A DNA stretch of 64,000 nt, from NCBI GenBank assembly GCA_000091205.1, contig AP006486.2, one strand, 5' to 3'. The position numbers and the translations under genes are program-made. The first letter of the stretch is position 1. Every line of letters starts with the position of its first letter. Positions 29 to 60,843 of this stretch are shown in pieces. The notes beneath the pieces were generated by a model. The model did not search any database. It had not been told where the DNA came from and saw only the letters and a list, made by a program, of their open reading frames with translations. The DNA is from Cyanidioschyzon merolae. Taxonomy: Eukaryota.

Positions 29-2435
29 CACTTGACCGCACTGCCCCGTCCTATCCTATACTGTACTACCTGCTCAATGAGCTACAACTGGTCTTTGCGA
101 GCACGTATGAAGCACTCGAGCATCTTTACGAAGAGCATTGGCGGGGGCCGTTCAAGGTTGTTTCTTGACGCAGAGTCCAAGGAAGGAACTGGACAGGTGC
201 AGTGGAGACCGACGGAGTATCCCTCTGGTTGCACTCTGCTCAGTCGATACCCGAGTCCCGCAAAGAGGCTCGTTTCAATCGCTCATCGTCGCTGAAATCT
301 AAAATTTCGCGGCGGGTGCAGGTCCCGGGTTGCAGGACGTCATAGCTGTCGCCGTGCTCCCAGGTCAGGACGACGAAGCCAAGGGCCTGAACTGAAAGCA
401 GCTGGAGAAGCTAAATGTTTCCAGAGCTCCGTCTTATTGAGGGTCGCGCATGACAGGTGTCAGAAGGCATACCGACAGATGGAATGGACGCGGCAGGACC
501 CAGATAGACGCCCTGAATACCGTGCGGAGCAGAGGTGGTCCTTCGAACGCTTCAGCCGAAGATTGCGTGAGCGTCTGAATGGCTCGTGCGGAAGGCGTCT
601 CTGGCAGGCGTACCCGAGGCCGCGCTGAGGTCGCCAACTTTTTCGGTTGCACGGAGACAAGAAACGTCCATTGACCATCCACTTCTATAAATTGGAGAAG
701 GAAATGACCGACAAGTCGCTTCGTTCGAAGGCAGCGTAGGGTTCTTGATGTGTTGCGGCGTGCAGTGGCTCCACTCTTGCTCGTCGAATGCGAGCGCACG
801 ACAAGTGCAGGAATCGACTCTTCAGGAATCCCATCGGTGAGTGCGGGACGACAAACACTCCTTGCGGACACGGGTGTGCGCTGAAACTGATTGAGAAGAA
901 GCGAGTGAAGCGCAGACGGCTGTATAAGATGGTGTACGGCAGGGTGACCAAACCTCAGATACCGGTGCATTCGAAGGCGAGCGGCTTTGTATAGTGCGAT
1001 TCTACCAGCAAGCTTGTGCGCAGGCGCTTTCTGCATCGAGACTTGAACGTCCCGCTCAACGTTCGGAAATGTCACGTGCCTCCGGAGCGCTCAGCGGCTT
1101 TGCATCGTGCGGGTTGTCGGGGAAGAATCGTTCGCTTCTCAGCGTAGGCATTGTGCTGGAGCGCTGAGGACTCCCGATGCAGAACAAATCAGTAGCCGGG
1201 ATCGAGGATCGTGGATTTCCGCCTGGAGCAAGACACTGGTATGGAACGGTGTATCAGTTCGGAATAGGCTGGAGTGCCGCTTGTCTACATCGGGAAAGAC
1301 TTTCGTAGGCAACTGATGAGTGATTATGGTGTAGGATTACCCAATAAAATGGGCAGAAGAGCACCATAATATCGGTTCCTGAAATTAACCGATACGGCGA
1401 TACTTGCGAATACTGGGATCGTTTCATGAAGCTCATGAGCTAAAATGTATCGAGACAGGACTCGAGCGCTTCCGGCAGGATAACAGAACCCCATGTAAGG
1501 TAGTGTAGTGTTTTTCTTCCGTTCCGGCCCGTGAGATGCTTGAAGACGCCTTGTTGAGTGGTACACAATGTTTCTCAGTGGCGTCCGATCACACTTTGCG
1601 CATCGATTGTCGTTCTAACTGGCTGCTCCAGACTCCAGATATTTCGAGGATCTTGCACGAACAACGGCGCCTAGATTGCTTGCTTCTTGACAAGTATGGT
1701 TCCTTGTTTATGCGCCCCGGGTGAACTTAGATCTTGCTCGGTCTCAGCGCGTATCTACGAGACTGTGATTGCCGCAAAACACGTCAATTAGATCATGACC
1801 AGATATCTATTCCGGCTTATTCTTCGCTGTGCAGCTCGTACCTTGACAATATCTTGACAGCGTCCCTATTAGCGTTCTATATGGGAATCCAGCAACCTGT
1901 ACGCCCATACATGATAGTCTGAAAGTTTCCGCTAGTCACTGCTCCATGCGGTGCAGTTCATACGAGAATGCTCAGAATATTTTTGCCAGATTTTTCGCTG
2001 AAGCTCCCAATAGCCAGCGGAACTTGCTGTCTATAAAGCCGGAAAACGTGTTCGGCCCCTGGGGGAGGCAACTTGTAACCGAGGCGCGGCGCTTCGCCTC
2101 AAGAGTCTGTGGCCTGCGCCGCCTCCTTCGGGCCAAGACTGGAAACACCGGAAAATAACTAAAAGTCAGTTGCGTCGCCAGCGAATGCTCGACAAAGCAT
2201 CGCCAGTACAAGTCAGAGCAGGTGGACGGGTACGCTAGGCATGCAAGACACTGCCCAACCGAGCCGAATTCCACAAAGGAAAAGAATATCCGTCCCGATT
2301 CTATACGAATTCCGCAACAGCTGGAAAAGCGCGCGAGGTAGCATCCGCAGCCCGAGGTCTTTTCGAACCGACGATCTACATGCTCAGTGGAGCGAAAAGG
2401 CATCGCTTCCATAGAGAATGTAAATACACTCACTC

Positions 2436-2783
2436 TCAGACGCCCTCAGCCGTTTTCGACAGGCCCACTTTCATCGGCTTCAGCTTCGTCCTGCACACTT
2501 CGAGCTTGAGGGGCTGCCCCATGGAGCTGGATCGCGTCAGATCCTCGAGTCTCTTCTCCGGCACCGCACATCTCCTGATATTGATGGCAGCACTCAAGTC
2601 TCGATTCCCGAACTCTATAGGCTCATTGCCACTAATGGAACGCATCACTTCACGGATTCCTAAGCTTCTTGCTCTCAGTGCCAACCGATGCTCCGTGAGC
2701 GCCCCGTGCTTTTCTATCGCCGAAGCGCTCCGCGGCCTGCTCGCCATCACGACCTTCTGAAGTTTAAACCCAAGCTCATCCAC
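2436..2783 (-). pseudogene. TnpB/Fanzor-like C-terminal fragment with a RuvC-III-like motif 'NRDLSAAINIRRCAV'
   Basis: The 'D-x-(N/S)-A-A-I-N-I' motif is characteristic of RuvC-III in TnpB, Fanzor and Cas12. The same core recurs at 9.9k, 40.8k, 44.8k and 60.4k. No N-terminal RuvC-I/II is found in the same frame. Confidence 0.5.
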
Positions 2784-3478
2784 TGGATTTTCATTTCTTG
2801 AAATGAACGCACTTCTTCTTGCACTTAGGTGGGACCTTCCCGATGATAAAGAAGAACTTACGGAAGAAAGACGGGATGCATATCAGCGTTACCGTGTACT
2901 GAACATTTCAGCAATGCGCCCAGTGGAGCGATCATTACGTTTCTCGACGGGAAGCACTCCATGGATGGGGTCGAACCACGGAGAGTACGGAGGAGTGAAA
3001 ACCACTTCTACCCCGACAGAATTAGCAAAAGCTGGAACGCGACGTGAATGATGAAGTGCAACTTTATGCAATAGAGGGGTATTATCAGACGTGGGGAGAA
3101 GGCTTCAATAGTTGGACATACTGAATGCTGTTGTATGAACCCTCTCTACGAGCGAAACCAACGGCGCCAAACGAATCCTCTTGAACTAGAACAGATGAAG
3201 ATGTCCTCGTTCCCTACCAGCTCGATCGTACATACAGCGGGCTTGCTCTGAGCCAATACGCATATTCGTGCCGACTGTTTCATCTGAAGCAAGTCACATC
3301 GACCGAAAAAACATACCGACATCTCTGTTCTTCACAACCATGGCGACTTTCGAGGAACTCTGTAGTTGTGATGTTGGTGGAAGATGGCTGTGCATGAAAT
3401 TTGACTGCTTTTTTTGCGAATGTATCCCAGTGTATTCAGTAGCATACGAACAAGCTGTTGGGAAACAGAGACGCCCGT
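2500..3478 (-). mobile_element. Inverted-repeat arm A: ~1 kb copy of the TnpB/Fanzor-like repeat family, about 99% identical to arm B (9187-10170) in opposite orientation
   Basis: ORF pairs are near-identical between arms: 2436..2783(-) vs 9882..10418(+), 2380..2760(+) vs 9905..10279(-), 3268..3480(+) vs 9176..9397(-), 2889..3071(-) vs 9594..9776(+). Nucleotide identity breaks at 3478/9187 (inner ends) and near 2500/10170 (outer ends). Confidence 0.85.
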
Positions 3479-4854
3479 AACTGCTATTATCTTCTCCTTT
3501 GTTTTGCGTGAGATGATCGAGGAGTCCTTTTTGTACCATTCACCGCAAGTGGGTCGTGATAATGTCGGGTTTTGGCACCTTGCGCGTATACGTGTTTCTT
3601 TCAGTGTTCCTGAATTATCAGAGGAATGTGGCATGACTGACCTGAAGGAGTTTGTCATCCGCTTGCACTGTTCTGTAAAGACTATATCCTACAGGCAATT
3701 ATTCTACAATTTATAAGGTGCACTGCATCATGATTTCGATCTCTTGCTAAAGACTGCACCGGCTGTGGAACGAAACTGAGTTGTAAGACTATAATGGATG
3801 GTGAATGGTGGATCCTGAGGTCATGGTGCAGAATGATGAACACCCTCACGGACGCGAATAGTATTCGCGCTCAATCGAAGATAACTCTGTTCGTGTACAC
3901 GATCCGTCAATCATCATAAAGAAACTATCCGGTTGCTACATCCTATGGACCATTGAACAATAGCAGTGACACTTACCATCGAATCGGTGCATTTTTACCG
4001 AAAAGAACAAAAACTAACCTCTTACTAGCAACTCTACAGCAGCTTCTTTCTTCTCTACGCTGAGCGATAGAAGGGGGAGGAGTTTTCCGTAGTTTCCGAC
4101 GTTTACGTTCTGGGCGGAAGGTCCGGCGGGCCGGACAAGTCTGCAACGCAAGAACGTCATGCTCCTCCCTGTGGCGGGTGCTGCGGTTCGACCTTTAGCA
4201 GCTTGTCCGCAGCCCAGTTTATTCGGGCACTGGGCGTGGCCCTGGTCCCGGTGATCCCCTAGCTATCGCTTCGCATTGCCGCATGCAGTAGGTCTGTCTG
4301 CGCAGTTTGCAGGCTTCCGGAAGGATGATGTTATCCGATCCCGTGTCGGATGAACCACGCCTCGAGTCGACATGCCGATTGGTATGGCAACGCGGATCTG
4401 TCTCCGCGCTTCATCCGCACCAGCGGTATAGACGCTTTTGCGGGTGCTTACAACAGGCTCGGGGCACGGTAGAATATACGAAACGATCAGTATATCCGAG
4501 AGCAAATATGGGTAATGGAACTGGGACGTGTTGCGCAGCATGATGAACGCTTTCTCGATTACCAACGTCGATCACGCAATCTGGGATCCATGTACAACGT
4601 AAACGCTTCGTCGAAGAAAAAACATATAGAACTGAGCAGCGCGCTGGACCCGCCGCAGTTCGCAGCGACCCAGGTCACCAGATCCATACACTTGCCACAG
4701 GCAATAGCGTTCTGCACGCAATGAGCGCCTCACAGAAAAGGGTCACTTTAGTCGACAATTTTGAGGAGCTCTTTTTCGTTCGCGGAAGGAACGCCAAGGC
4801 GTAGAGAGGGCCGTTAGTCACCTGTGGGAAGCTATTTGTGGCTGTGTATTCTAG

Positions 4855-5550
4855 ATGGCAGCACTGGAGTCTGTGCCGTCTGGCGACGCGGAGCCGCGTC
4901 AAACGCTGCCACGGTCCCCGAGAGGTCGGCGCTCCTTCACAGAAGCACAACGAAAGGCTGCTTGGGAGCGAGCAAAGCCCGTTCCGGGGCGCGATCCCGA
5001 GCGATGGCGATATGATGTGTACGGAAATCCAGTTTTGCGGCCCTTGCACGGCTGTTTAGGCTGCTTTTGCTATGAGTTTGACCACCGAGTACCCTACTCG
5101 CTCGGAGGCGCGACAAGTCTTGACAATTGTGACATTCTTCAAACGCGCATAAACCGTCTCAAATCGAACGCTCTAGAAGGAGTGAATATATCCAGGGAAC
5201 AAATCCGCCAGTATGCATGTGAAGACGTGTCAAATGTCATTGACATGGACGCCATAGAGTTCGCGGTTTACGGCGACGTGCGCCGCGAGGGGCTTCACTG
5301 CCGTGCATACAGCTTGTTCGAGAAGGTCGCTTCCGAAATGCTGGTTTCCACCGGGCGAGTATCCAGGTTTGAAAGCGGATCTCCAGCAGTAACGGAACAT
5401 TCACCCATGAAGATATCTCGTCAAAGCAACATCCCATCATGCACCGAAGCGTTGAACCGTACTCCACAGCAGCAAGGCATGAAACCAGTACCGAGTCATC
5501 CTGAAATACCGATTCCACCCGCTTGGCTCTTTCTTCCATCCTTCTCGTGA
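4855..5550 (+). CDS. HNH endonuclease-domain protein, about 230 aa
   Basis: The motif 'CLGCFCYEFDHRVPYSLGGATSLDNCDILQTRINRLKSN' fits the HNH pattern C-x2-C...DH..P...GG...N....L....N..K. Its size and layout resemble small plant/algal HNH-domain proteins; this is from memory, not searched. Confidence 0.55.
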   Translation: MAALESVPSGDAEPRQTLPRSPRGRRSFTEAQRKAAWERAKPVPGRDPERWRYDVYGNPVLRPLHGCLGCFCYEFDHRVPYSLGGATSLDNCDILQTRINRLKSNALEGVNISREQIRQYACEDVSNVIDMDAIEFAVYGDVRREGLHCRAYSLFEKVASEMLVSTGRVSRFESGSPAVTEHSPMKISRQSNIPSCTEALNRTPQQQGMKPVPSHPEIPIPPAWLFLPSFS

Positions 5551-6224
5551 AATGAAGTGGTATCTGGCTGCTGGTATAGAACCTGCTAAACCACTACCCA
5601 CTAAAATGCATTCGAGTGTATATATATGCCGGTGCACAAGTGAGCTAATTTCTCATCGCCATTACGATCCAGCGTTAATATTGCCATCGAGATCCAGAAT
5701 ATGTGCAGGAGTTGCGACCGTTTCATGCAGCAATCAGTCTGATAATTACGTCCAAACTCTGAAAAGTGCAATCGATCCCAAATCCGTCTGGTCTGCTGTA
5801 ACTGCACCTTCTGAGCAATAAAGTGCCGCAGCGTTTCACGTTCTGGGTTAAAGCTTGCATTCTCGATTGGTGATCAAGCATGCAAACATGCGGCTGAGCT
5901 ATAAAAGTGAGAATCTGCGATATGCCGAAACTGATGTATGCAACCTCCTCGAGGAGATCGTGCACAGATGGGGCAGCCTGCACTAGAGCTGCAGTTGCCC
6001 AGTCGGCATCTAACATCGGCTGAGCTCGATGACAGCGCGTCCCGGCACACAGCAGAAACTACAGTCCTGTGCGAACTACCTCACAGGCGCACCTTCGAGA
6101 AGCAGAGAACCATCATCGTTAAGACGCGACTCACCTCTCCCACGCCGAGCTCGTTCCACCTCGCATGAAGACATCAAATGCCGCAAACATTGGCGTTGCT
6201 ACATCAGAATCGCTTCCACCGCCG

Positions 6225-7094
6225 TTATCTACTAGACGAGCGTGAACCGGCCGTGAGTTCAAGGGCGCGCTCTACGCTCCGCCATTGCTCTGCGCTTAGT
6301 GCCTCGTCGGGCTCAGCGAATTGCAGCCTCGATAGCCAGAGTTTCGCTGATTCTAATGAAAAGCCATACTTGTTCTGCAGAATATCCAAGCCTTCACCTG
6401 TGCAAAACTTTCTCTGTAAGGGCTCAATCTCACGCTTTAGTTCCGATACGGCGGCTCTTACATGTGCATCATCTCGACAAACAAGCACAAAAGCCGGCCA
6501 TGAAGGCGCATATTCGCCGACAAGGCGAATCAGACCCTGTCGTGTAGCTGCACACTCCTTTGTGAAACACGTTTCCCAGAGGAACATGTCGATGTCACCG
6601 GCAACTGCGGCCTGTATCAGACCATCGAAACTTCCGCATTCGAAGCTCTTTAGTATATCATTTTGAATACCTGTAGAGATCCAGCCACGATCACTAGCGA
6701 AAACAGAAAGAAGTAGATGGCTTCCGGAGCCCCTTCGGGAGAATCCCGCTCGGATGCTTTCTCCGCGAAGCACGGCCGCATCCAAGCTATTCAGATCAGT
6801 CCAGTCGGTTTTCTTGGAACTCACTGCGACTCCCCAGGCTAGAGGAGAAGCAACGTATACAGAGTGCACAGCGAGCCCAGAGGCAGCTGCTTTTGTGCGT
6901 GCCACAGCGCTCTCGGTAAGTGTAACCGCTACGTCTAACTCGCACTTCGCCAACATTTCGAGCGCGGCACCGCTGCCACCTGCAACCCCCAGAAACTCAA
7001 CCTGTAACTTCGTGGACGGGAGAGCGCCCTCCTGGGCTTGCATAAAAATCTCGTTGAAAGGCTCGGGCACGCCGCCAACTCGTAGTAAAGTCAT
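6225..7094 (-). CDS. Possible periplasmic-binding-protein-like II (NMT1/THI5/Ca3427-like) domain protein
   Basis: It is a complete 289-aa ORF. The N-terminal 'LRVGGVPEPFN' and overall composition recall the PBP2 / NMT1-like fold. The assignment is weak and no motif check was possible. Confidence 0.3.
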   Translation of the reverse strand: MTLLRVGGVPEPFNEIFMQAQEGALPSTKLQVEFLGVAGGSGAALEMLAKCELDVAVTLTESAVARTKAAASGLAVHSVYVASPLAWGVAVSSKKTDWTDLNSLDAAVLRGESIRAGFSRRGSGSHLLLSVFASDRGWISTGIQNDILKSFECGSFDGLIQAAVAGDIDMFLWETCFTKECAATRQGLIRLVGEYAPSWPAFVLVCRDDAHVRAAVSELKREIEPLQRKFCTGEGLDILQNKYGFSLESAKLWLSRLQFAEPDEALSAEQWRSVERALELTAGSRSSSR

Positions 7095-7896
7095 TATGAA
7101 AAAAGCACGTCCTCACAGGAAGAAAAGCCAGTACTCAATATACCTCTTCGTGCGCATCGTTGTAGCAGGACGGGCAGTTCTCCATGGGACTGTTTCAATG
7201 CATTGAAAAGAGTGTCCTTGGATCCAGAGAGCTAAAAAGATATGAAGCAAAACGAAACCTTCAAGGTAGGTAGGAGCCATTGCTGTTGTCCATGGACCGG
7301 CTTTGACGCGTTTAGGTGGATGTAAACGTACCCCGCAGCATGACCACGTAAGGGAACCAGAGGCGTCCCGATAGGCGATAGCCGTTGTGATGGCTTCTGG
7401 AGATAGAACGCGCTGACTTACATTCAGGCCGCACGCTGGGTCGTATACGTGAACGTGCTGACTGAGAGAGCCGGCTTCGTTCAAGGACAAGGTGCCCAGA
7501 GCTGCATTCCAGTGTGCCAAAGGCGTATGTGCCATGCTCTGAGCATCCGCGGGAAAACGAGAAGACTCGAGGATGCACGAGGACTTTGTCCAAGCTTTCG
7601 ATCTCGATTCCTATCGAGCTGCAACTTATGCGATGATCGAGTTGGGCCTGCAAGCTGGTCTGGAGTCGGACATGGAAACTTGTCTTTTCATGAAGACGTC
7701 ATGAATCAAGATCCAACCGCTTAAAGTAGGAAAGCTACATATATTTTGCTCCTACGCAAAACTGGAGCGCGAAATTTGCAGCCCACGTAAAGCTGTCTCC
7801 ATGAAGCTGCCTTCCCGAAAAAATTCTCCCCGAAGCCATCAGTTTTCAGCACAGAGGACCATGCTCCGCCGAGATCCATGCTTGTCCGCGTACCTG

Positions 7897-8691
7897 TCAC
7901 ATGAGATGCTGGTATCGCCACAATTTGATGCCCAGAAAAGTAGACGCAATATACGCCACCGTCCACCCTATACTCTCAATGATGGTCATCGCTCGCCAAT
8001 ACGTCCGCAAATTTTTGGCATTATTCTGAATCCATCCGAGACGTGTCCAACCGTTGAATGGAAACGGGAAGCTGACGATGCTCATCACAATGCAGAGCGC
8101 CGTGATGATACCGAGTATGCAGTACGATGCCTTATAATAAGTCGAGTCATCTTCCGCGCATGCTCTGAAAACTGTGAAATAACCGGCAGACAAGACAAAA
8201 AACCCCAAAAATACGTTAAGCAAAGAGACCACCCACTGGGCCCACGGATTTGAGGCTGCACCACGGGCTGCGAGAACAGTCCATGTTACCCAGTTCAAAA
8301 CCAACAACACCATAGCGTACCAAAAGAACCAACTGTACAACGCTGGGTTTGCTCGGACTAGAGGCACCAGCTCCGACAAATCTATGTGCACAACGTGGAA
8401 TATAGCCGGCCAGTTCGGTTTGTCCCACTCGATCCCTTTTCCAGTTACGGTGTTCGCGTTTCGAATAGGTACCGGGGGTGGCACCCGGCTGGCCCCTTCT
8501 GTGGCGTCCTCACCCATTTGAAACTCTTCCGGAAACCCAGCACCATGACGTTCTAGGGTGATCTTGCCACCAACTTTTTGGATCCAGCTCATGCCTCTCT
8601 GTAAAGACCCGTTGTGCTTGTAGGAAGTCCAAAAAAAACTCAGCCAAGCGAAGTGGATAAAAGTACAGCGGCGCGGCTCGCGCGCTTCCAT
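7897..8691 (-). CDS. Multi-pass membrane protein of unknown family
   Basis: The 264-aa ORF has 4-5 strongly hydrophobic segments, e.g. 'ALYSWFFWYAMVLLVLNWVTWTVLAA', 'WVVSLLNVFLGFFVLSAGYFTVF' and 'YCILGIITALCIVMSIVSF'. Confidence 0.4.
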   Translation of the reverse strand: MEAREPRRCTFIHFAWLSFFWTSYKHNGSLQRGMSWIQKVGGKITLERHGAGFPEEFQMGEDATEGASRVPPPVPIRNANTVTGKGIEWDKPNWPAIFHVVHIDLSELVPLVRANPALYSWFFWYAMVLLVLNWVTWTVLAARGAASNPWAQWVVSLLNVFLGFFVLSAGYFTVFRACAEDDSTYYKASYCILGIITALCIVMSIVSFPFPFNGWTRLGWIQNNAKNLRTYWRAMTIIESIGWTVAYIASTFLGIKLWRYQHLM

Positions 8692-8989
8692 TCTGAACGC
8701 ACAATCGTAGAGCCGTTACGCGTTCATCGATAGTGTGGGATATCGATGAGGGGATAGCGGGATCCCCCATATGCACAATGATGATGGATGTCCAGGTAAG
8801 AAGCCACCATCCGACCTGGGCCCGCTCAGTTCCAGTCTCCGCTAACAATACCTCCGTTCAGAGATGGTACAGTCTTTCAACTCGAATGTGTTTTAGCCTC
8901 GCTGCGGTGCATAGCTTGAGATCGAATTCAGTATGCAGTGTAACCAATAGATCGGGGACGAATTGACTGCAGCTATGCATTCTTCAATG

Positions 8990-10300
8990 ACCGGCGCACG
9001 GAGGACTGCATTCCTCCTCCTTCAGTTCAGACATACTACAGTACACAGATGGTGTAGGAGCACTGACAGAAAGAAGTAAGTGCGCTCCGCGCCAAAAACC
9101 GATATTCTCAAAGACTGGTTGAGGTCAATTGTAGAAAACGACCGATTGGTCATCTTGCGGAAAGCAAAAGCGACGTTAGAATCCATCCGGGCGTCTCTGT
9201 TTCCCAACAGCTTGTTCGTATGCTACTGAATACACTGGGATACATTCGCAAAAAAAGCAGTCAAATTTCATGCACAGCCATCTTCCACCAACATCACAAC
9301 TACAGAGTTCCTCGAAAGTCGCCATGGTTGTGAAGAACAGAGATGTCGGTATGTTTTTTCCGTCGATGTGACTTGCTTCAGATGAAACAGTCGGCACGAA
9401 TATGCGTATTGGCTCAGAGCAAACCCGCTGTACGTACGATCGAGCTGGTAGGGAACGAGGACATCTTCATCTGTTCTAGTTCAAGAGGATTCGTTTGGCG
9501 CCGTTGGTTTCGCTCGTAGAGAGGGTCCATACAACGGCATTCAGTATGTCCAACTATTGAAGCCTTCTCCCCACGTCTGATAACGCCCCTCTATTGCATA
9601 AAGTTGCACTTCATCATTCACGTCGCGTTCCAGCTTTTGCTAATTCTGTCGGGGTAGAAGTGGTTTTCACTCCTCCGTACTCTCCGTGGTTCGACCCCAT
9701 CCATGGAGTGCTTCCCGTCGAGAAACGTAATGATCGCTCCACTGGGCGCATTGCTGAAATGTTCAGTACACGGTAACGCTGATATGCATCCCGTCTTTCT
9801 TCCGTAAGTTCTTCTTTATCATCGGGAAGGTCCCACCTAAGTGCAAGAAGAAGTGCGTTCATTTCAAGAAATGAAAATCCAGTGGATGAGCTTGGGTTTA
9901 AACTTCAGAAGGTCGTGATGGCGAGCAGGCAGCGGAGCGCTTCGGCGATAGAAAAGCACGGGGCGCTCACGGAGCATCGGTTGGCACTGAGAGCAAGAAG
10001 CTTAGGAATCCGTGAAGTGATGCGTTCCATTAGTGGCAATGAGCCTATAGAGTTCGGGAATCGAGACTTGAGTGCTGCCATCAATATCAGGAGATGTGCG
10101 GTGCCGGAGAAGAGACTCGAGGATCTGACGCGATCCAGCTCCATGGGGCAGCCTCTCAGGATCGAAGCGTTCCTGCGTAAACTGGAAGCGATAGAATGCA
10201 ACCGGCCAAAAAGGCTAGCTGGCGTCCGTGCGTCGGTATTAGTTGCCCCGATATGGTCGTGGGGCATTTTTGGTTCCATTGACCGTATAATGGACAGGAG
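8990..10300 (+). mobile_element. Inverted-repeat arm B plus flanking family homology: a TnpB/Fanzor-like element copy
   Basis: 9187-10170 is about 99% identical to arm A. 8990-9187 and 10170-10300 are more weakly homologous to copies at 36.9-38.0 kb, 40.9-41.1 kb and 44.9-45.05 kb. It contains the RuvC-III motif 'GNRDLSAAINIRRCAV' in ORF 9882..10418. Confidence 0.7.
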
Positions 10301-10418
10301 CGGAGGTTCTCGAACGGATCGATTCTCCGATTTGTCAGCGGAGCGCCCGTGTAGAGGTGCATACGGTGGTGCGAAAAGTGTTCACTGTAGGGTCGGCCCA
10401 GACGAGTCGTTGGAGTGA
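9882..10418 (+). pseudogene. TnpB/Fanzor-like C-terminal fragment (RuvC-III and C-terminal tail)
   Basis: 'GNRDLSAAINIRRCAVPEKRLEDLTRSSSMGQPLRIEAFLRKLEAIECNRPKRLAGV' aligns with the C-terminus of the 44251..45201 ORF ('FNAAINTRRYAVLETRPPVLTRENFVRQPFKVKLYEKQLEAVVGGRSKKLGRV'). Confidence 0.5.
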
Positions 10419-11466
10419 ACTTGCCTCTCTTCTGATGATGACTATCGGTCTGGAGCTCTAGGCGCGCTAACGCTTTCGAAGGGTTTCAGCGCTGGCTTCC
10501 GTAGAGCTAGGCAGCACTCATGTTTTGCGGGGCATCCGATTTGCTTCATAGAATCTGGCTAATGAGTAACTGGGAACGGGAGAGGCTAGTACTAAGCGTT
10601 TCTCGTCGGTTCGAGTCCCCCTGAAATTAGCCACACTTATATCGAATTACGGGCTTCCACACAGACGGATAGCATGCTTCACCAAATGGACTGAACTGCA
10701 AGTTGCCGAAAGCGAGCTGCACCTCAAGGCCATGTTCTTCATGAGGTACGGGAATCAGGAGCTGTGTCGCGTTGCTGCAGAGCAGATCCACCTATAGTAG
10801 ACAGCTCGGTTCGAGAGCGAGTCCAACCGCTACGCAGAGCTCGCTGTATTCTATGATGCACCTTGAGGCGATCGGTTGCACCCCGAACGATGAGACTTCT
10901 CAGCAGTTTACCGTGTATCATCCGAGACGACCACAAAATGGATGTGGAGCAGCGTTCAGACTGAGGCTTAGTTGCGCCTCTCAAGCAAGTGACGATACCA
11001 GTAATGGAGGAGAAGTTGTCGGTGGCCCTGCTCAGAGCAACGAGCCTATTCATGCATGTTCGTTGAGGTTCGTGCAGGTCCGTCGAACGCGCTCAAAGCG
11101 GTCGTTGCATCATCCGTTTGACCTGGCTTCGTATGCTCGCGTGCATGTCTTATTTGATGCCAACCAAACAGTTGCTTGTACTCTTGCGCTGGTTTCGGCG
11201 CTAGTGCTCGACCAGTTTTGTATTCCCTGCGTGGTCGAATAGCGCCTGAACACACGCACTAATCTTGATAGGCACAATGAAACCTCCGCTAACTTCCCGA
11301 ATAAGGGCTGTGGCGAGTTTCTCTTGTTTCCACAGCGGGTCTGGAGGACTACTTGTTGTTGACCGAGGCAGAGGCTTCAGTCAAACGTCAGCTGCGTTTA
11401 GACTTTAGTGCAGCTTCTTTTGTAGGACCCAAGTCAATTTTCGATACCCCTCTACGGGCAGAAGCG

Positions 11467-13386
11467 CTACTGCTTTGCATCAAGAGATGCCGTTTTGTGC
11501 ACGGACTCTGCAGTGGGCGGGGCACTATGCTTCAGCCGCTTAGGCCAAGGGCGTTGCCATTCTCTGCTGCTCCAGGCGTCTAATTTTGCCGGCGACTCGC
11601 TCGCTGACAGCTTATCGGTTTCTCGCCTAATAGTGATGCGATCAAGATAGATCGCATCATCACATCCTATGCGAGCGCGTACGAGCGTTGGTCGAAAACT
11701 AGTTCTAACCATTGTACTCTGGTCACAAAGTGGAGTCGAGTCTGGGAAACACATGAGCCGCTTCGGGCCAACAGCTGGCGTGTCCGCGATCCGCTTCATG
11801 CCATCGGAGCTCATCCTGGACGCGCTCACCACAAGAGAGGTTTGCTCCTCGGGATGATTCTTGGACGCTGCAGCGTCGAGGATAGCGTATGCCATTGGCG
11901 TCGTCAGACGCGCGATCAGCGTGGATGCGCAGCGTAGCGGCTTTCGTAAGCGCGACGCCTCAAGCTCCATTGATGGTGCAGGACGCGCACCCTGAGGGAT
12001 ACTGCGTTCGGCAGTGATGTTTCCAAGCTGCGAACGCTCTTGTACGGAATGCGATAGACTTGGATCGGCCCACAACGGAATTCCGTGCACCCTCCAGTCA
12101 AATGGATTGATACCGTCACGAAAGAAACCCCCTGAGAAGTACCGAAGTCTTCGGAACGCTTGAAAGCCTTTCTCATCAAAGCCGTAGAGATCTCGTTTCG
12201 GAGCTGCAACAACAGAACCAGCGCTGCCGCTATCAGGGGGTTTCGCGGCGCTCGTTGCTCGAATCTTTGTGACGGAGGTTCCCGAGTGATCGCTAGATGC
12301 TTTCTCTTCGCTGCGCCTTCTGTGTGCACTGTTCCATTTCAAAACCCCTTTTCGGGCTAGTTCCGCGATGTTCGTCAAATGGCGATAGAGATCGGCCCCA
12401 ATCGGCGTTTTCAGTGGCAGGATCTTGGCAGCTTTTTGAATGAGCTCAAGATGCGGGTAGCGTAACTGCAGCGTGGCCAATTGACTCGAAATTGTGAAGA
12501 GAACGAGGTCGAGTTTGATCCGCTCTCGTTTCATGACCTGTTCCATGATCGTTCTAACTCTCTCCATGTCTTGCCTGATCCTGCGTAATCGTTTGTAATT
12601 GTCGAACGTGTTTGATCGAGCTCGCCTTTTCTGTTCTTCATCGTTACGTGGCCTGAAAGCTACCGACGGGTCTGGATTGTTCACATCGGGCGGATCTCGA
12701 AGATAACGTAGAATCGGTTGACCGCCACGCTGCTCACGTTTCCGTCTCCAGTGCATGTATAGTGCATCTATATGCTGCTCATTTAAGCCGAGAGTGGCGT
12801 CTTTCATTAGCTGGGATTTGGCGCTGTTCGGCGACATGAGCGTCCGAGCGGTACCCTGCTCTTTTTCCAGAGCGTCCATTGCACGCTCGAAGGTGTCAAG
12901 ATCGATACATAGTTCATTTTGCGCGAAACGCTTGTCCCCATCATCAGCCTCGTAGTCGATCTCTCGCTCGAGTAGGGCCCTGTCGTCGGCGCGTGCATCT
13001 ACGTAGGTGTCGCTCAGCTGGAAACGGTTCCGCACTTGCTCCAACAGAGCCTCGGTGTAACACGGAATCTCCCGAATGACGGGTACGGGTATGATAACTG
13101 TGCGCCTTCCGTCTATATGATCGCATGATGCGCTCTCCGCATCCTCCTCTTGTGCGGTGGATTTTGTCTCTGCGCGTTTTATGCGCAGATTCATAGATGC
13201 TAAGAGCGCTTCTTGAAGATGGCGTTCTCCAAGCTCACCTTCTTCGACTCCAGTGCCATATTCTGGCAAGGCCCGCTGAGCGGAGACCACTTCGACATCG
13301 GACTTGAGGTCCGCATCTGAGCGGATGATGAGCAGAGGGCGTTGCAGGTCAATGGCCCTCGGCCGGAAGAGCGCGCGGCGTGACAT
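11467..13386 (-). CDS. Enhancer of Polycomb-like protein (EPcA N-terminal domain), a NuA4/HAT-complex EPL1/EPC homolog
   Basis: The N-terminus 'RPRAIDLQRPLLIIRSDADL...LPEYGTGVEEGELGERHLQEAL...IIPVPVIREIPCYTEAL...FQLSDTYVDA...IDYEADDGDKRF' matches the conserved EPc-N blocks (TGVEkeEEhHLQ, IP-P, YD-D-eD). The C-terminal half is low-complexity and basic/Ser-rich. Confidence 0.6.
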   Translation of the reverse strand: MSRRALFRPRAIDLQRPLLIIRSDADLKSDVEVVSAQRALPEYGTGVEEGELGERHLQEALLASMNLRIKRAETKSTAQEEDAESASCDHIDGRRTVIIPVPVIREIPCYTEALLEQVRNRFQLSDTYVDARADDRALLEREIDYEADDGDKRFAQNELCIDLDTFERAMDALEKEQGTARTLMSPNSAKSQLMKDATLGLNEQHIDALYMHWRRKREQRGGQPILRYLRDPPDVNNPDPSVAFRPRNDEEQKRRARSNTFDNYKRLRRIRQDMERVRTIMEQVMKRERIKLDLVLFTISSQLATLQLRYPHLELIQKAAKILPLKTPIGADLYRHLTNIAELARKGVLKWNSAHRRRSEEKASSDHSGTSVTKIRATSAAKPPDSGSAGSVVAAPKRDLYGFDEKGFQAFRRLRYFSGGFFRDGINPFDWRVHGIPLWADPSLSHSVQERSQLGNITAERSIPQGARPAPSMELEASRLRKPLRCASTLIARLTTPMAYAILDAAASKNHPEEQTSLVVSASRMSSDGMKRIADTPAVGPKRLMCFPDSTPLCDQSTMVRTSFRPTLVRARIGCDDAIYLDRITIRRETDKLSASESPAKLDAWSSREWQRPWPKRLKHSAPPTAESVHKTASLDAKQ

Positions 13387-15743
13387 GGTAACTAGAAGAA
13401 GCTATATCAACTAGTACAAAACAGTACCAGGAGTCAACGCTCCCGAGCCTCACTGAGCGCCAGCCCCCCGGTACTGCGGGAAGCGAAGTTTTGCAGAGCT
13501 GTAGCTTCAGACAGTCCAGATCAAGAGCCTTTTTCCAGGATATTGTATAGTCCTGTTTGCGCTCAGGGGTTTTTCTGCCGACAAAAACCCGAAAAACGCC
13601 TCTCCCACAGGGTCTCCAAAGAACGTGACGTTTCAGAGTGTCACGCGGTTACCGTACCGCACCCATGGGTATGCTGCCCCCGCCAACCTCTGTCGCCGGT
13701 TGGCTCTTAATGACTATAAGAGTCAACCAGAGCGACCGTTCCAATCAGAACCAAGATTTCAAAAGAACTCAACGATAAGCTTAAGTAGACACGCAGCTGT
13801 GGCGTTGTAAGACGGATTAAAATTGCATGACTCAACTGCGCGCTCTGCTCTAGCCTTTCGATTTTTTCAAAGTTTTTGAAGATATGCAGCATCGACATTC
13901 CAAGAGCAACAGAAAAGGTACACGGGTTCATAAGCAATTCTCGGATTCTCGGACGCCTCTTCAGAGTGGCCCTTTCTACTCCCTGCAGCTGTGATTCGTT
14001 GCGTCACCGTCATGAGCATGACTCGCGACGCACTCTGAAATAGTTGCGTCCAAAAACCGATGCTGTTATCCATTTATTGAGTGCAAACCTCCATTCTACC
14101 CCTTTACTTATGTGTATCATGTCGAAATCGCACATTGTCCAAATTTTAGGTCTTCCTGCTTCAAGGCAACTCGTGGGCGCAGCAATTCGCGCCGCGGGAT
14201 ACACAAGGAATACGTCTCGACATCGTTCTTGAACGACAGTTGACGAGCTTCTGTGAGAAGCTACGTGCACTTTTCATGTCAAATTGTCGGTTCCACTCTA
14301 AAGACCAGTTCGCCTCAGTTCAAGGACATCCACGAGACAAGCATTCTGAAACAGCATGATAGCTTTCACGGTGCATGCACCGAGAAGCGTCCCGCTCTTT
14401 AGTTTGCATGAAAAAAAGAGTCTTGGTTTCGGAATTAAATCACCGCATCGATCGCTTCTGATGAAGAGCGTGTCACCGCTTTGCAAGAAGAAAACCCAGA
14501 CGGATTTAAGTAGCTCGATTGCTTGTTCAGTCTGGGTTTTCGTCACGGCATTTGTTTCATCGAGGACTGCATCGGGCTCCACAAACCCGATATCGGATGT
14601 GACAGTGTGCGCTTGCACGAGCAGCGCACAGCGCACTCCCCGGGAGGATCGCTGCTAATAAACCCATGATCATAGGGTACTGCATCGGGTGCGGGTACGG
14701 AGGAGTGCATTGCGGAGAGCCACGTGTCCGAATCAAGCGCATAAAACGAGCCCTGACGCAAGCGCTCTCGCGCCACAGCGCAGCGCTTAGAGCAGGTGAT
14801 GTTGTGGACATAAAGGAAAACCTGGGCATGTTCAACAGTCACCGTCGCGAAGCGCGCACCGAGGCTGTATGCAAGGAAAATGAAGAGAGCGAGCGAAGCA
14901 TAGATCGGAAGAAACTTCTGTGCATGAAACGCTCGTACGATAGACGGAGGCTGCTAAATCGAGAGTTGAATGCTACTATAACAGCCTTCGACTGCTGACA
15001 AGATAGCTGTAAGAACGAGAGAGATCGTCGTTTCAAAGATGGATATAAGAGAAAGGAAATCTAGTCATAGCAGAAAGAAAAGCCCGCTGAGGCTAGTGTT
15101 GATGATAGTGGTAAGTGTCCGAAACTTTAGCTCGTGTGCCCGAATTAGTGGAACCGCTCCACTCCAGTCTAATATTCCTGTAGTCTGTACGAAAAAACGC
15201 TGTCCGGATGATCTGGAAGCATAACGCCGCAACGGCCATGTAAGCAAAAACGCTGATTGACGAAGGTGCTTGCAAGCACCGTGAACTAGCTACCAGTCAA
15301 AATTGCTCTGTGCTTAGAACATGGGCGAGAGAGGCAGACCATCAACGCTTCGCCTCGGGTCGAGTGCTCAGGTACGCTCAGTCGCTCAGGGGAGACACGT
15401 ACACACAAGTCAGCATTCCGTGAACCAGATGTTGCTTTTGGGACATGATCGTCGCCGTCATCCGTGACGCTTCGACTTTCGTGCGTCCGTGCCACAGCTC
15501 TCGTGGAATGCACGTTTTCAGATATTCGATAGGCCATCGCGAAGGTTACAGTGCATGGCGCACTCACGAAAACATATTCAAGGGTGAGCGATCCGCAGGC
15601 AACAGAGTCGGAATGCGATCACATTCTAGGACGATCCGCGAGTCGATCCGGTATGATGGAGAACGGACTCTGGTGTGTAATTACGATTTCTCTGGCTTCA
15701 TATTTGGCTGCAGTGACATATAATTATTTATTAAAGCCTATGC

Positions 15744-36600: not shown

Positions 36601-36919
36601 ATAAAGTCACACAGTAACGCCAGCTCAGTTCCAACTCGTCGATCCTACTGCGTTGCGGGCATTTTGCTATGTTCGGCCGTTTACGACACCGAAACTATGA
36701 TGAACGCGACCTGCGCCTAGCGCTGGAAGCGCGTCCCACGGCATCGTGGTACTGGTGAGGTGCATTCTCGACAGCGCGTTGAACAGCAGCACTTCTTTGA
36801 GTCGTTCAACTCAGGTTTGTTTCATCACTGCTGGAGCGTATAGCAGGAGATCGGCATTACGATGCAATGTAGTGTATATATTGTATACGATTTGAATGTA
36901 GGATATATGCTTTACGGAA

Positions 36920-38040
36920 TTATGCACGGAGGACTACGTTCCTCCTTCAGGTCAGTCGTACCCCAGTACTCTGACAACTGGGGAACACTGAAAGGAGCAA
37001 TTATATGTGCACAGCGGTAAAAACCGATACTCTCACAACCTGCTTTGGTTCAGTGGTAGAAAACAACCCGTGGATCAACTTATAGGAAGCAAAAGCGACG
37101 ATTGTAGATAACACAAGCGTCACTGTGCCTCAATAGTTTGTTGGTATGGTACTGAAATCACTGGGATAACGTCACATTAAAAGTCCAATTTCATTCAGAG
37201 CCATCTTCCTCGGACGTCACTACGACAGAATTCCCCGAAAGACGCTATCGATATGAAGCACAGGGACATCGGTTTGTTCTGTCAGTCGATGAGACGTCTT
37301 TCCCACGAGACCGTCCCAGCATATATCGGTATTTGCCGAGAGGAAACCAATTGAATATAAGATCGAACTCGAATAGAAGGCTCATACCACAGCATTCCAT
37401 TTATCCAACCATTGATGACGCTTTCCACGTCTGACAACGTCCTTCTCTTGCACATCGTTGCCTTTCATCGTTCCCTTCGCATTCTTGTTTTTGCGAGTTC
37501 TATCTTCCGGAACTCCTTCTCCCTTGCTGAAAGGTCCTCACCTAAGTCCATTATGAGAGGCGTTCATTTTAAAGCAATAAAAAATCCGTGGGATAGAGAT
37601 GGACATGGAATTCGAGGATTCTGGAGGGCACCAATCGCCAGATTCGACAAAGAAACGAAAAAATTTTCTTCTCGCTGATCATCGAGTGAAGAGGAGCGAG
37701 TAACGAAGAAGAAGAGAGGAGATAGACGAGAATATTTGTTTGCCCGACGGAGCGACGACGAGACCATTGTGGCACAGAGGGCACGAGTTCTAGGAATTCT
37801 TGAATGCATGAATTCGACCAGCGGCAATATATGCAAGGAGTTCATGAACTGAGACTTCATGCCAGCCGACAAGATCAGGAGATGAGTGGGACTGAAGCCG
37901 CAACCCGAAAAGGTGACGCGACTGAATTCTATGGGACAGCCTCCCAGACTCCAATTGTACCTGGATAAACTGAAACCGATACCAGGTGGCCGCTCGAAAA
38001 AGGGAGACGTCTGCAGATCGATATTCGGTTACGCTACGAG
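36920..38040 (+). mobile_element. Degraded third copy (copy C) of the TnpB/Fanzor-like repeat unit
   Basis: 36920-37320 aligns with 8990-9400 at the nucleotide level, e.g. 'cacggaggactacgttcctcc...aaaaaccgatactctca...ggaagcaaaagcgacg...cagccatcttcc'. 37900-38040 encodes 'MGQPPRLQLYLDKLKPIPGGRSKKGDVC', homologous to the C-terminal tails of the other copies ('MGQPLKLEVCRTKLKP', 'GGRSKKLGRVC'). Confidence 0.5.
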
Positions 38041-60551: not shown

Positions 60552-60843
60552 GAGAGGATTTTTTCATTTTTTGTCGAAACCGGGGATGACGGCTCTCCTG
60601 CATCCAGACGTCCATGTCTATACATTTCGCTTGGATTTTTAATTTCTCCAAATGAACGCACTTCGAAAACGTCTGCTATAAACTGCGACAAAGCATTTGA
60701 TGACATGCACCTGGATGCGGCGTAAAATTGAGGTGAAAGACAACAAGCAAAGTGTCCATAAAAGAAGGACAGCGTGTTTATCGTGCTGAACAGCTACGTT
60801 GCCTTTCCCAACCAGGATGATGAAACGTCTTCCACACGATCGC

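Follow-up and report, generated by a model that had tools for sequence, protein, structure and literature searches.

Two copies of one decayed DNA transposon lie in opposite orientation on chromosome 4 of the red alga Cyanidioschyzon merolae, nearly identical over a central ~1 kb and strongly diverged on either side of it, and the three-gene block that they bracket is exactly the segment that is inverted relative to the sister genus, Cyanidiococcus. The best explanation overall is probably that the copies are old, independent insertions, that their centre was homogenised by gene conversion, and that they mediated the inversion. The window, i.e., the whole stretch of DNA analysed (64,000 nucleotides), comes from the finished chromosome 4 of C. 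merolae 10D (513,455 bp), whose genome has been reported as 100% complete (PMC1955436).

Extent and Identity of the Inverted Repeat

A repeat search in the window returned one inverted pair, 2432-3477 and 9188-10233 (1046 nt, 96% ungapped identity, spacing 5710 nt). Alignment with MAFFT and a table of variable sites delimit within it a near-identical core:

2512..3478, no strand: left homogenised core, 967 bp, sharing ~99.2% of its bases with 10153-9187 (from the site table and an identity profile; metagenome contig L045, the collapsed repeat, corresponds to 2512-3477)
9187..10153, no strand: right homogenised core (alignment; 9187 is the exact end point of the interior contigs of wild populations)

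The 8 substitutions per 967 bp fall at left-arm positions 2734, 3080, 3081, 3129, 3138, 3232, 3242, and 3304, bearing out the ~99% inverted repeat that the initial annotation had placed at 2500-3478 and 9187-10170. Because flanking sequence aligned like the core gives a background identity of ~35%, chance is ruled out. Homology between the arms continues more weakly past both core edges (2427-2511, ~58%; 3479-3791, ~63%) in shoulders that the annotation overlooked, so that the real repeated units are ~1.37 kb, longer than its limits, and the unique spacer is 3792-8869 (5,078 bp). The transitions are abrupt: the collinear shoulders differ at 36/86 and 119/321 sites, against 8/967 in the core, which supports gene conversion, one of the sources of arm identity suggested earlier. 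The flanks outside both arms show no homology to each other.

Anatomy of the Arms

Each arm is a complete element abutted by TA, and its recognisable parts are as follows:

2427..3791, minus strand: left arm, complete arm-type DNA transposon, 1,365 bp; TA at 2425-2426 and 3792-3793
8870..10236, plus strand: right arm, complete copy of the same element in opposite orientation, 1,367 bp; TA at 8868-8869 and 10237-10238
2436..2783, minus strand: Fanzor1 C-terminal remnant of the left arm, a 115-aa ORF matching the CMe-1 C-terminus by BLASTP
9888..10214, plus strand: Fanzor1 C-terminal remnant of the right arm, matching CMe-1 residues 612-721 by tblastn (50% identity, E=6e-24)
2889..3658, minus strand: decayed IS630/Tc1-mariner-type (DDE_3) transposase of the left arm, from six-frame translation, Pfam, and BLASTP

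The 5' terminus of the left arm reads TA followed by TAGTCTTACAACTC, and at both of its ends homology with the right arm and with a third copy (C3, below) stops; that of the right arm reads TA followed by CAGTCTTTCAACTC, and its homology to the left arm and C3 begins and ends there. Convincing terminal inverted repeats were not found at the element ends.

The left-arm transposase remnant lies in three reading-frame pieces with two in-frame stops, and 'PPYSPWFDPIH' replaces 'PPYSPxLNPxE'. Stitched into a pseudo-protein, it matches Pfam DDE_3 at 33.2 bits (cut-off 28.6; E=5.5e-8; profile positions 4-133 of 146), and BLASTP matches it to the PUl-1 Mariner transposase (E=3e-8). Downstream of this frameshifted remnant lie the final ~120 codons of a CMe-1A-family Fanzor1 gene. 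The left-arm Fanzor1 remnant matches the CMe-1 C-terminus at 50% identity over 109 aa (BLASTP, E=6e-29), and nucleotides 2779-2549 match positions 2737-2970 of the CMe-1A consensus (taken from PMC3627910) at 73%. The Fanzor1 part of the arms corresponds to CMe-1 residues ~612-734. The RuvC-I and RuvC-II motifs lie upstream of these residues and are absent from the left-arm ORF, which keeps a RuvC-III-like motif, 'NRDLSAAINIRR'. The earlier reading of each arm as a Fanzor-like copy thus holds for the outer ~350 bp (2436-2783 and its mirror) and fails for the ~770 bp that are decayed DDE_3 transposase; given this composition, the arms as Fanzor genes were rejected.

Age of the Arms and a Third Copy

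A further copy of the arm-type element within the window provides an age reference:

36799..38021, plus strand: third, unlinked copy (C3), collinear with both arms at ~60-80%, same termini

Shoulder identity between the arms (0.55-0.70) equals that of either arm to C3, which makes the three copies roughly the same age. All three have the same two termini, with TA on either side, which points to separate insertions rather than segmental duplication. The shoulders have a Jukes-Cantor K of ~0.5-0.6, against ~1.5 for the genus split (p=0.65 at four-fold sites); judged by sequence divergence, they are younger than the separation of Cyanidioschyzon from Cyanidiococcus. These ages fit the reported repeat expansion specific to Cyanidioschyzon (PMC9812998).

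The same comparison excludes the very recent duplication that had been proposed, as the collinear shoulders are 37-42% diverged, as far as from unlinked C3. A recent inverted segmental duplication, in which a ~1-kb piece was copied in reverse, would explain the 99.2% core identity, but it is very improbable: collinear homology past both core edges is just 58-63%, no closer than to C3, and the arms end at family termini with TA, in flanks without homology. The similarity that the shoulders share with C3 also means that they are not unrelated sequence aligned by chance.

One transposition-linked event might instead have made both the second copy and the inversion, through intramolecular or sister-chromatid 'alternative' transposition, with the ends diverging afterwards while the centre was kept identical. 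Complete inverted elements at both ends of an inverted segment are the expected product, and such products are established for bacterial IS elements, Ac/Ds, and P elements. However, Tc1/mariner-type elements are cut-and-paste movers, the same later conversion would still be required, and the shoulders of the two arms have diverged as much from each other as from an unlinked copy, so that nothing suggests that they are sisters. Such an origin is therefore improbable, if slightly less so than segmental duplication.

Structure in Wild Populations

Independent metagenome assemblies from wild populations, ~0.7% diverged from 10D, break at the core edges. In every sample shown for it, the interior was recovered as a 5,711-5,712-bp contig equal to 3478..9187. 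The core was recovered as a separate 966-bp contig, and the flanks as contigs of up to 72.7 kb that stop ~100-140 bp into the core; three metagenome contigs span one or both arms. An assembly artefact was rejected as the source of the repeat, as the finished 10D chromosome and these assemblies give the same structure, with identical core boundaries. No orientation polymorphism of the block was seen among the arm-spanning assemblies: all four (10D, L011, L012, and L021) have the same orientation, and thus give no sign of present-day flipping.

Between populations, the core has diverged by 0.4-0.8%, comparable to the interior (~0.7%). Variants are distributed across the arms in patterns suggestive of concerted change, part of which, in the metagenome contigs, may stem from assemblers that collapsed the arms or mixed them: a G at 3232 occurs in the right arm of 10D and in the left arm of L021, a C at 3304 in the left arm of 10D and in the right arm of L009/L013, and at 2942, 2947, and 2963, 10D differs from L011/L012, alike in both arms.

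The homogenising process was most likely gene conversion, and conversion between the arms may have been recurrent. Alternatively, both arms could have been overwritten separately from a near-identical master copy elsewhere (inter-locus conversion). The clustered differences (three sites in 22 bp at 2942-2963, four in 59 bp at 3080-3138) look like imported patches, and other class II copies exist in the genome (PMC1955436). Against this, an ORF lying wholly inside the core was recovered only in the collapsed 966-bp repeat contigs, relatives within the window are just 60-80% identical, and the tract boundaries are identical in both arms, which makes exchange between the two arms the simplest account; a master copy is unlikely.

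Host Genes and Gene Order

The enclosed block, the interior repeat fragment, and the right-hand flank marker comprise:

4855..5550, plus strand: HNH-fold protein BAM79187, 231 aa, bounding the inverted block on one side (exact match)
6225..7094, minus strand: SsuA/THI5-like periplasmic-binding-protein-fold protein BAM79188, 289 aa (orthologues in Cyanidiococcus-type genomes)
7897..8592, minus strand: SCAMP (secretory carrier membrane protein), 231 aa, bounding the inverted block on the other side (Pfam SCAMP, E=1.9e-14)
11467..13386, minus strand: EPL1-like flank marker BAM79190, adjoining SCAMP here and the HNH gene in Cyanidiococcus
4002..4612, minus strand: CMe-1A 5'-region copy (TE-N2_CMe-like) within the interior, matching consensus 5-636 by blastn

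All three interior genes described earlier (HNH, PBP-like, and membrane protein) were recovered. BAM79187 is named 'HNH nuclease domain-containing' in UniRef and matches Pfam HNH weakly (E=0.04), and its core, CxxC...E[FY]DH...N...NxxK, is invariant across three genera; an HNH-type core is thus present in the gene that had been called an HNH endonuclease, yet it is a conserved single-copy host gene rather than a mobile endonuclease. Orthologues of BAM79188 in Cyanidiococcus-type genomes are 57-59% identical, and those of SCAMP 72-77% in Cyanidiococcus types and 49% in Cyanidium. By these sequence comparisons, the interior consists of conserved host genes (HNH-fold, SsuA/THI5-like, SCAMP), not cargo.

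A composite or TIR-bounded mobile unit carrying HNH, PBP, and SCAMP, as the initial annotation proposed, is the least credible alternative. The gene block is indeed bracketed by two inverted transposon copies, and to this extent its geometry resembles that of Tn5/Tn10-type composite transposons. However, the transposase is dead, with stops and frameshifts; the ends of each arm are individually abutted by TA; the interior genes form a conserved neighbourhood across three genera, in all of which SCAMP neighbours the HNH gene; the arm-type element is undetectable at the Cyanidiococcus and Cyanidium loci; and the block occurs at one locus only. A target-site duplication around the whole unit was looked for, and nothing was found beyond the TA expected of each single element. 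Unlike Tn5/Tn10, then, the structure has no working transposase, unit-level target duplication, or mobility evidence, and its 'cargo' is syntenic host DNA. Fold-back or cruciform behaviour, also suggested, would be implausible with a 5-kb spacer.

Orthology was checked by tblastn, and GPDH is BAM79186, the annotated CDS immediately preceding BAM79187. The order in C. merolae is GPDH(+), left arm, HNH(+), PBP(-), SCAMP(-), right arm, EPL1(-), KCS(-), and that in Cyanidiococcus, with which a second deep lineage agrees, is GPDH(+), SCAMP(+), PBP(+), HNH(-), EPL1(-), KCS(-). The inverted segment is exactly the arm-bracketed three-gene block, with one arm in each breakpoint interval, in keeping with the earlier prediction that the geometry favours inversion of the enclosed segment. 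Neither arm-type or Fanzor homology nor sizeable repeats were found at the Cyanidiococcus junctions. This inversion between genera is a known kind of event, at a locus that is apparently undescribed.

Three inversions separate the outgroup, Cyanidium caldarium, from the C. merolae arrangement and three from that of Cyanidiococcus, and its unsigned order, KCS-EPL1-SCAMP-HNH, is that of C. merolae; hence, the inversion could belong to the Cyanidiococcus branch, with no part played by the arms. It is accordingly possible, although considerably less probable than mediation by the arms, that the block was flipped on that branch or by an unrelated break-and-rejoin, and that transposon copies landed later in the same two intervals, by coincidence or because these intergenic regions are permissive, were homogenised by conversion, and took no part. 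Consistent with this, the arrangement is common to both deep Cyanidiococcus-type lineages, which would allow an early event on that branch, and the left breakpoint interval (7.6 kb) is packed with unrelated repeat fragments and is thus a general landing zone for insertions. Small inversions are also frequent here, at least three among four genes separating the other two genera from Cyanidium, which gives coincidence a non-negligible probability. On the other hand, copies of a rare family, in opposite orientation, would have to hit exactly both breakpoint intervals of the sole rearrangement in a six-gene stretch, the chance of which is roughly estimated at a few per cent. Nozaki et al. counted eight class II elements in the whole C. 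merolae genome (PMC1955436).

A Proposed History of the Locus

In the favoured history, two copies of one DNA-transposon family would have inserted independently, one in each orientation, into the two intergenic regions of chromosome 4 that flank the SCAMP/PBP-like/HNH-like block, after the lineage split from Cyanidiococcus. The copies, now ancient and inactive, would each have decayed to a DDE_3 transposase remnant followed by a CMe-1A-family Fanzor1 3' end, while non-reciprocal gene conversion, repeated over time or in a single event predating the sampled populations, would have homogenised the core. Since the copies are inverted, reciprocal exchange within that core would invert the block between them, and as the block is inverted relative to Cyanidiococcus, the arms most likely mediated the inversion, which likely took place on the C. 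merolae branch. Homologous DNA, including engineered intrachromosomal repeats, is recombined very efficiently in C. merolae (PMC8504449). At the ~60% identity of the shoulders, recombination would be inefficient, which makes one late event difficult to envisage, and lasting upkeep of core identity is assumed.

Relation to Known Systems

The 2j inversion of Drosophila buzzatii reportedly arose by ectopic recombination between oppositely oriented copies of Galileo, and Ty elements in yeast cause inversions by the same route. As in those cases, inverted transposon copies occupy both breakpoints and are absent from the relative's alternative arrangement. The classical cases, in contrast, were proven by exchanged target-site duplications, whereas the target site in C. 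merolae is just TA, and their arrangements segregate within species, whereas the present difference is fixed between genera with an equidistant outgroup. Arm-to-arm gene conversion is known from human Y-chromosome palindromes and plastid inverted repeats, which likewise have inverted arms >99% identical, diverged neighbours, and sharp identity boundaries. Unlike these, the C. merolae arms are ~1-kb dead transposons around a 5-kb spacer of single-copy genes, and nothing in them points to selection for identity.

Among described elements, PUl-1 of Pythium ultimum is a Mariner element carrying Fanzor1 (Bao and Jurka, 2013, PMC3627910) and has the same layout of a Mariner/IS630-type transposase followed by Fanzor1 on one strand, with TA flanks; the arm-type element differs in keeping just the last ~120 Fanzor1 codons, in being all pseudogene, and in its unrecognisable TIRs. 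It probably falls among the eight class II elements counted by Nozaki et al. CMe-1A/TE-N2_CMe is a Fanzor1 repeat family of C. merolae (Bao and Jurka, 2013, PMC3627910) and probably corresponds to the WSV486-like 3.2-kb repeat for which Nozaki et al. (2007) gave 253 copies. In each arm, ~230 bp of the outer part match its consensus positions 2737-2970 at 73%, and the protein remnant resembles CMe-1 as given above, but CMe-1A has no transposase and was left unclassified, and the arm-type element is a different, chimeric family. The CMe-1A copy at 4002..4612 is 75.5% identical to the consensus (E=4e-123) and lies 210 bp from the left arm, on the same strand.

Extent and Reality of the Inverted Repeat

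Two old, dead elements of the IS630/Tc1-mariner type, each with a remnant of a Fanzor1 3' end, lie in inverted orientation and bracket a block of host genes. A repeat search of the window returned one inverted pair, 2432-3477 and 9188-10233, which is 96% identical without gaps and separated by 5,710 nt. Alignment and a site table delimited a near-identical core, 2512-3478 versus 10153-9187, with 8 substitutions in 967 bp (left-arm positions 2734, 3080, 3081, 3129, 3138, 3232, 3242, and 3304). These analyses bear out the near-identical repeat described in the initial annotation, and the identity of the core stands; what had been missed is that homology continues beyond both core edges at far lower identity. 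In these shoulders, the arms differ at 36 of 86 outer and 119 of 321 inner positions. Because flanks aligned in the same way are ~35% identical, chance similarity was dismissed as an explanation.

The window spans BAM79187 to BAM79200 of chromosome 4 (513,455 bp) of C. merolae 10D, the genome of which was reported to be 100% complete, telomere to telomere (PMC1955436). Metagenome assemblies from wild populations, ~0.7% diverged from 10D, independently reproduced the inverted-repeat topology. In each sample shown for it, the interior was assembled separately, as a 5,711-5,712-bp contig that coincides with 3478..9187; the core formed its own contig of 966 bp, equal to 2512-3477, and flank contigs of up to 72.7 kb ended 100-140 bp inside it. 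Three contigs (L011, L012, and L021) traverse one or both arms in the same orientation as 10D. An assembly artefact, which had been named as a possible origin of the arms, is ruled out by the finished chromosome together with the independent wild assemblies and their three arm-traversing contigs. A left-outer-shoulder probe recovered a single metagenome contig that ends ~100 bp inside the core and, thus, does not span the arm, and the long EPL1-bearing contigs (72.7 and 62.3 kb) both end inside the right core and are silent on orientation.

Homogenisation of the Core

Identity between the left and right shoulders was 0.55-0.70 per 40-bp window (JC distance ~0.5-0.6), no higher than that of either arm to C3, a third, unlinked copy of the element at 36799-38021 (+). 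The three copies are therefore about equally old, and the arms are not a recent duplicate pair. Very recent duplication, one of two processes to which the high identity had been attributed, is ruled out by shoulders as diverged as those of the unlinked copy. At the core edges, identity rises abruptly to ~99-100%, the transitions are free of indels, and the sequence stays fully collinear with C3. Such an abrupt, collinear jump between diverged shoulders indicates non-reciprocal homologous exchange between two old paralogues. Because near-identity is confined to a tract within older, diverged, collinear homology, it was concluded with high confidence that the 967-bp centre was homogenised by gene conversion, the second of the two processes. 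The sequence of events would have been the insertion of two elements, now old and dead, in opposite orientation, the centre then being overwritten by non-reciprocal exchange between the arms. Homologous recombination is highly efficient in C. merolae, including at engineered intrachromosomal repeats (PMC8504449).

The tract boundaries were the same in 10D and every wild assembly, so that homogenisation either predates the sampled populations or recurs, the diverged shoulders setting its limits. The arms differ from each other by 0.83%, which is similar to the divergence between populations (0.4-0.8% in the core, ~0.7% in the interior), and a single event shortly before the population split would therefore suffice. 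A few variants are shared by opposite arms: 3232-G by the right arm of 10D and the left arm of L021, and 3304-C by the left arm of 10D and the right arms of L009 and L013, while at sites 2942, 2947, and 2963 10D differs from L011 and L012 in both arms; because short-read assemblers can collapse or mix arms, these hints of later exchange are suggestive only. Differences among arm copies were also clustered, mirror positions included, with three within 22 bp (2942-2963) and four within 59 bp (3080-3138); the pattern resembles short patches converted from other copies of the family, not point mutations that arose one by one.

Anatomy of the Arms

C3 has the same organisation as the arms, and homology among the three copies begins and ends at the same places. 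Each arm is abutted by TA at both ends, and C3 at its 3' end; as a 2-bp site next to boundaries that were chosen post hoc, this TA is weak evidence of target-site duplication. The 5' ends read TA followed by CAGTCTTTCAACTC in the right arm, TA followed by TAGTCTTACAACTC in the left arm, and TT followed by GAGTCGTTCAACTC in C3, while the 3' ends of all three align at TA. Element limits were assigned from the common homology ends and the terminal TA, which leaves a true spacer of 3792-8869. The elements and the features of the spacer are as follows.

2427-3791, left arm element (shared homology limits and TA)
8870-10236, right arm element (shared homology limits and TA)
4002-4612 (-), TE-N2_CMe-like copy of the 5' region of CMe-1A, the Fanzor1 repeat family of C. 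merolae
6225-7094 (-), SsuA/THI5-like (PBP-like) binding protein, BAM79188
In the spacer, HNH-fold protein of 231 aa, BAM79187
In the spacer, ORF of 140 aa with no assigned function
In the spacer, SCAMP

Terminal inverted repeats were unconvincing, as the best match of a 5' end to the reverse-complemented 3' end scored no more than 8 in all three copies; the 5' end of the right arm ('CAGTC...') is Tc1-like, and the ends are heavily decayed.

The window is eukaryotic and intron-poor. On the coding strand of each arm, a transposase remnant is followed by a Fanzor1 ORF of 115 codons. The transposase remnant comprises three reading-frame pieces with two in-frame stops, defects that are common to both arms. 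When stitched, the pseudo-protein matched Pfam DDE_3 at 33.2 bits (cut-off, 28.6 bits; E=5.5e-8) over profile positions 4-133 of 146, a lone fragment matched at E=2e-6, and the stitched remnant matched the transposase of PUl-1, a Fanzor1-bearing Mariner element of Pythium ultimum, at E=3e-8 (BLASTP). When the PUl-1 transposase was compared directly with the window by tblastn, the broken frames allowed no more than a weak match (E ~0.1), and stitching was required for significance. A DDE_3-type (IS630/Tc1-mariner) transposase domain is predicted in the arms on the basis of these matches. In the motif 'PPYSPWFDPIH', His occupies the position of a catalytic acidic residue (Glu/Asp); with neither an intact frame nor the catalytic residues, the arms are not expected to be autonomous elements. 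Judged from their sequence, the arms are chimeric, dead transposons in which the genes follow the same order as in PUl-type Mariner-Fanzor1 elements, and the 'eight class II elements' counted by Nozaki et al. (PMC1955436) probably include them.

The 115-codon ORF aligns with the C-terminus of the C. merolae Fanzor1 protein CMe-1 (Bao & Jurka, PMC3627910) at 50% identity (E=6e-29). The arms match only CMe-1 residues ~612-734, beginning directly after the RuvC-II motif 'VDEFRTS', and no further Fanzor part was detectable when CMe-1 and CMe-1A were compared with the arms; the segments carrying the RuvC-I Asp and RuvC-II Glu are missing. The RuvC-III motif 'GNRDLSAAINIRRCAV' of the arms aligns to 'VNRDFNAAINIRRCAV' of CMe-1 and the C-terminal 'RD...NAAxNI' pattern is present, the RuvC-III-like 'NRDLSAAINIRR' being the sole motif kept in the remnant ORF. 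At the DNA level, positions 2737-2970 of the CMe-1A consensus are 73% identical to window 2779-2549 and 9886-10116. The description of the arms as Fanzor-like copies thus holds for the outer quarter of each arm only.

Host Genes Between the Arms

The match of the HNH protein to Pfam HNH was weak (E=0.04), and a search of PDB sequences gave no match. The protein has an invariant CxxC...E[FY]DH...N...NxxK core and 55-65% identity across three genera. The HNH assignment of the initial annotation was retained, and the gene is a conserved host gene, neither a homing endonuclease nor cargo. Nor did the proposal of a composite, TIR-bounded unit hold: the genes of the interior are host genes whose synteny extends across three genera, the locus has one genomic context in all assemblies retrieved, and a search for target-site duplications outside the whole unit found TA alone. 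A cruciform or fold-back function was likewise rejected, a 5-kb spacer making it implausible.

Upstream of the left arm, at a distance of 210 bp and in the same strand orientation, is the TE-N2_CMe-like 5' region, so that the locus mimics a CMe-1A element with its Fanzor body swapped for a transposase remnant. Because the right arm and C3 have no such neighbour, this is probably a juxtaposition and not one element. The SsuA/THI5-like gene lies between SCAMP and HNH in Cyanidioschyzon and Cyanidiococcus and is missing there in Cyanidium; the next-best homologues of its product are ~35% identical and named sulfonate-binding proteins in the sources, and the gene is a candidate for horizontal acquisition.

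Inversion Relative to Cyanidiococcus

PBP-like orthologues were found in Cyanidiococcus yangmingshanensis and another deep lineage of the Cyanidiococcus type, and orthology of the window genes to these loci was checked by tblastn. Both loci have the order HD(-) GPDH(+) SCAMP(+) PBP(+) HNH(-) EPL1(-) KCS(-), while C. merolae has GPDH(+) ... left arm, HNH(+) PBP(-) SCAMP(-), right arm, EPL1(-) KCS(-). GPDH is BAM79186, the CDS annotated directly before BAM79187, and on a wild contig the gene, which is on the + strand, ends ~2.7 kb to the left of the window. Collinear flanks with a flipped order show that the inverted segment is precisely the three-gene block enclosed by the arms, at a signed inversion distance of 1, in keeping with the earlier suggestion that the enclosed segment might be found inverted in related species.

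Reciprocal exchange between the inverted arms would flip the enclosed block. In C. merolae, inverted homologous copies are present, one in each breakpoint interval, as expected for ectopic recombination. The elements were not detected in the alternative arrangement: neither the arms nor CMe-1 gave a blastn, tblastx, or tblastn match in the two Cyanidiococcus-type loci or the Cyanidium locus (L031, L033, and L037), and no sizeable repeats were found at the Cyanidiococcus junctions. Four-fold sites are near saturation between the genera (p=0.65, K~1.5), and because the K of ~0.5-0.6 in the arm shoulders is lower, the insertions are later than the genus split, which fits the Cyanidioschyzon-specific repeat expansion that Cho et al. 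(PMC9812998) reported (12.7% versus 0.59% of the genome). The synteny analysis in that study used blocks of five or more genes and, therefore, could not have seen a three-gene inversion. It was concluded, with moderate confidence, that the block was probably inverted via recombination between the arms.

The alternative is that the arms coincide by chance with the ends of an arm-independent inversion. Comparison of the Cyanidium locus with window 4855-17555 revealed that the order DHHC-KCS-EPL1-SCAMP-HNH is kept with several genes individually flipped, a pattern suggesting that these compact genomes are commonly rearranged by the inversion of single genes. Because small inversions are common in this region, such a coincidence, put by rough estimate at a few per cent, is unlikely but not negligible. 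All putative target sites are TA, so that exchange of target-site duplications between copies would leave no trace.

The outgroup Cyanidium caldarium has DHHC(+) photolyase(-) KCS(-) acetyltransferase(+) EPL1(-) SCAMP(+) HNH(+), with a signed inversion distance of 3 both to the C. merolae and to the Cyanidiococcus arrangement. While informative on orthology, it therefore carries no information on the branch of the flip. Its unsigned order KCS-EPL1-SCAMP-HNH is that of C. merolae; relative to EPL1, the SCAMP strand is as in Cyanidiococcus and the HNH strand as in C. merolae. An earlier outgroup attempt via GPDH reached a contig that ends 178 bp past the gene.

TnpB/Fanzor guide-RNA scaffolds are usually encoded at the Fanzor 3' end. 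Because each arm keeps exactly this end, putative Fanzor-made breaks were proposed: the arms might be a still-active recombination substrate at which the block flips in natural Cyanidioschyzon populations, the Cyanidiococcus difference being one outcome, with breaks perhaps made in trans by RNA-guided Fanzor from the many CMe-1A copies. This scenario is considered very improbable. No orientation polymorphism was found among the four arm-spanning assemblies (10D, L011, L012, and L021), which have one shared orientation.

Significance of the Locus

C. merolae serves as a minimal model eukaryote, its genome being finished and very poor in transposons, and the locus is a small, clean case in which dead transposon copies probably still shape a chromosome: gene conversion probably holds ~1 kb of junk DNA almost identical, and the breakpoints of a three-gene micro-inversion between genera coincide exactly with the transposon copies. 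The probable events are of a known kind, transposon-mediated micro-inversion and concerted evolution of inverted repeats, and represent no new kind of biology; no published description of this locus was found in the literature searched. Ease of engineering by homologous recombination makes conversion and inversion rates at a defined 1-kb inverted repeat directly measurable. In the element, an IS630/Tc1-mariner-type transposase is combined with the 3' end of Fanzor1, a hint that a transposase of this type once moved the C. merolae Fanzor1 repeats, which were left unclassified by Bao & Jurka (PMC3627910).

Other Features of the Window

Rfam and tRNA scans of the window returned no matches, and Pfam searches found nothing in ORFs of the left breakpoint interval, the right-arm read-through ORF, or the tail of L035, a wild contig. 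Up to ~1355, L035 follows the window; its next 1.33 kb (L035 5303-6634) match neither the window nor any fetched locus and contain an open frame of 306 aa. This tail represents a polymorphic insertion or rearrangement, unless the contig is chimeric. L011 and L012 both start at 1229, which suggests a further repeat edge nearby.

A single Fanzor family was listed for C. merolae by Bao & Jurka (PMC3627910). A second, far more divergent Fanzor1-like pseudogene lies at 58-1126 (+), where three tblastn segments in different frames match CMe-1 residues 329-700 with 25-31% identity (E=2.5e-24). A nearly full-length CMe-1A Fanzor1 element at 42458-45046 (+), 85-88% identical to the consensus and with frame breaks, ends ~100 bp before a helicase ORF starting at 45144; its RuvC-III motif is 'YRAFNAAINTRR' in place of 'NRDFNAAINIRR', with loss of the catalytic Asp, and it is probably inactive. 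Further CMe-1A or arm-type fragments occur at 40601-41104, 48577-48802, and 60234-60700. Counting the arms, C3, and the other pieces described above, at least eight Fanzor-related sequences occur in the 64 kb, whereas ~150-250 copies in 16.5 Mb would predict a density several times lower.
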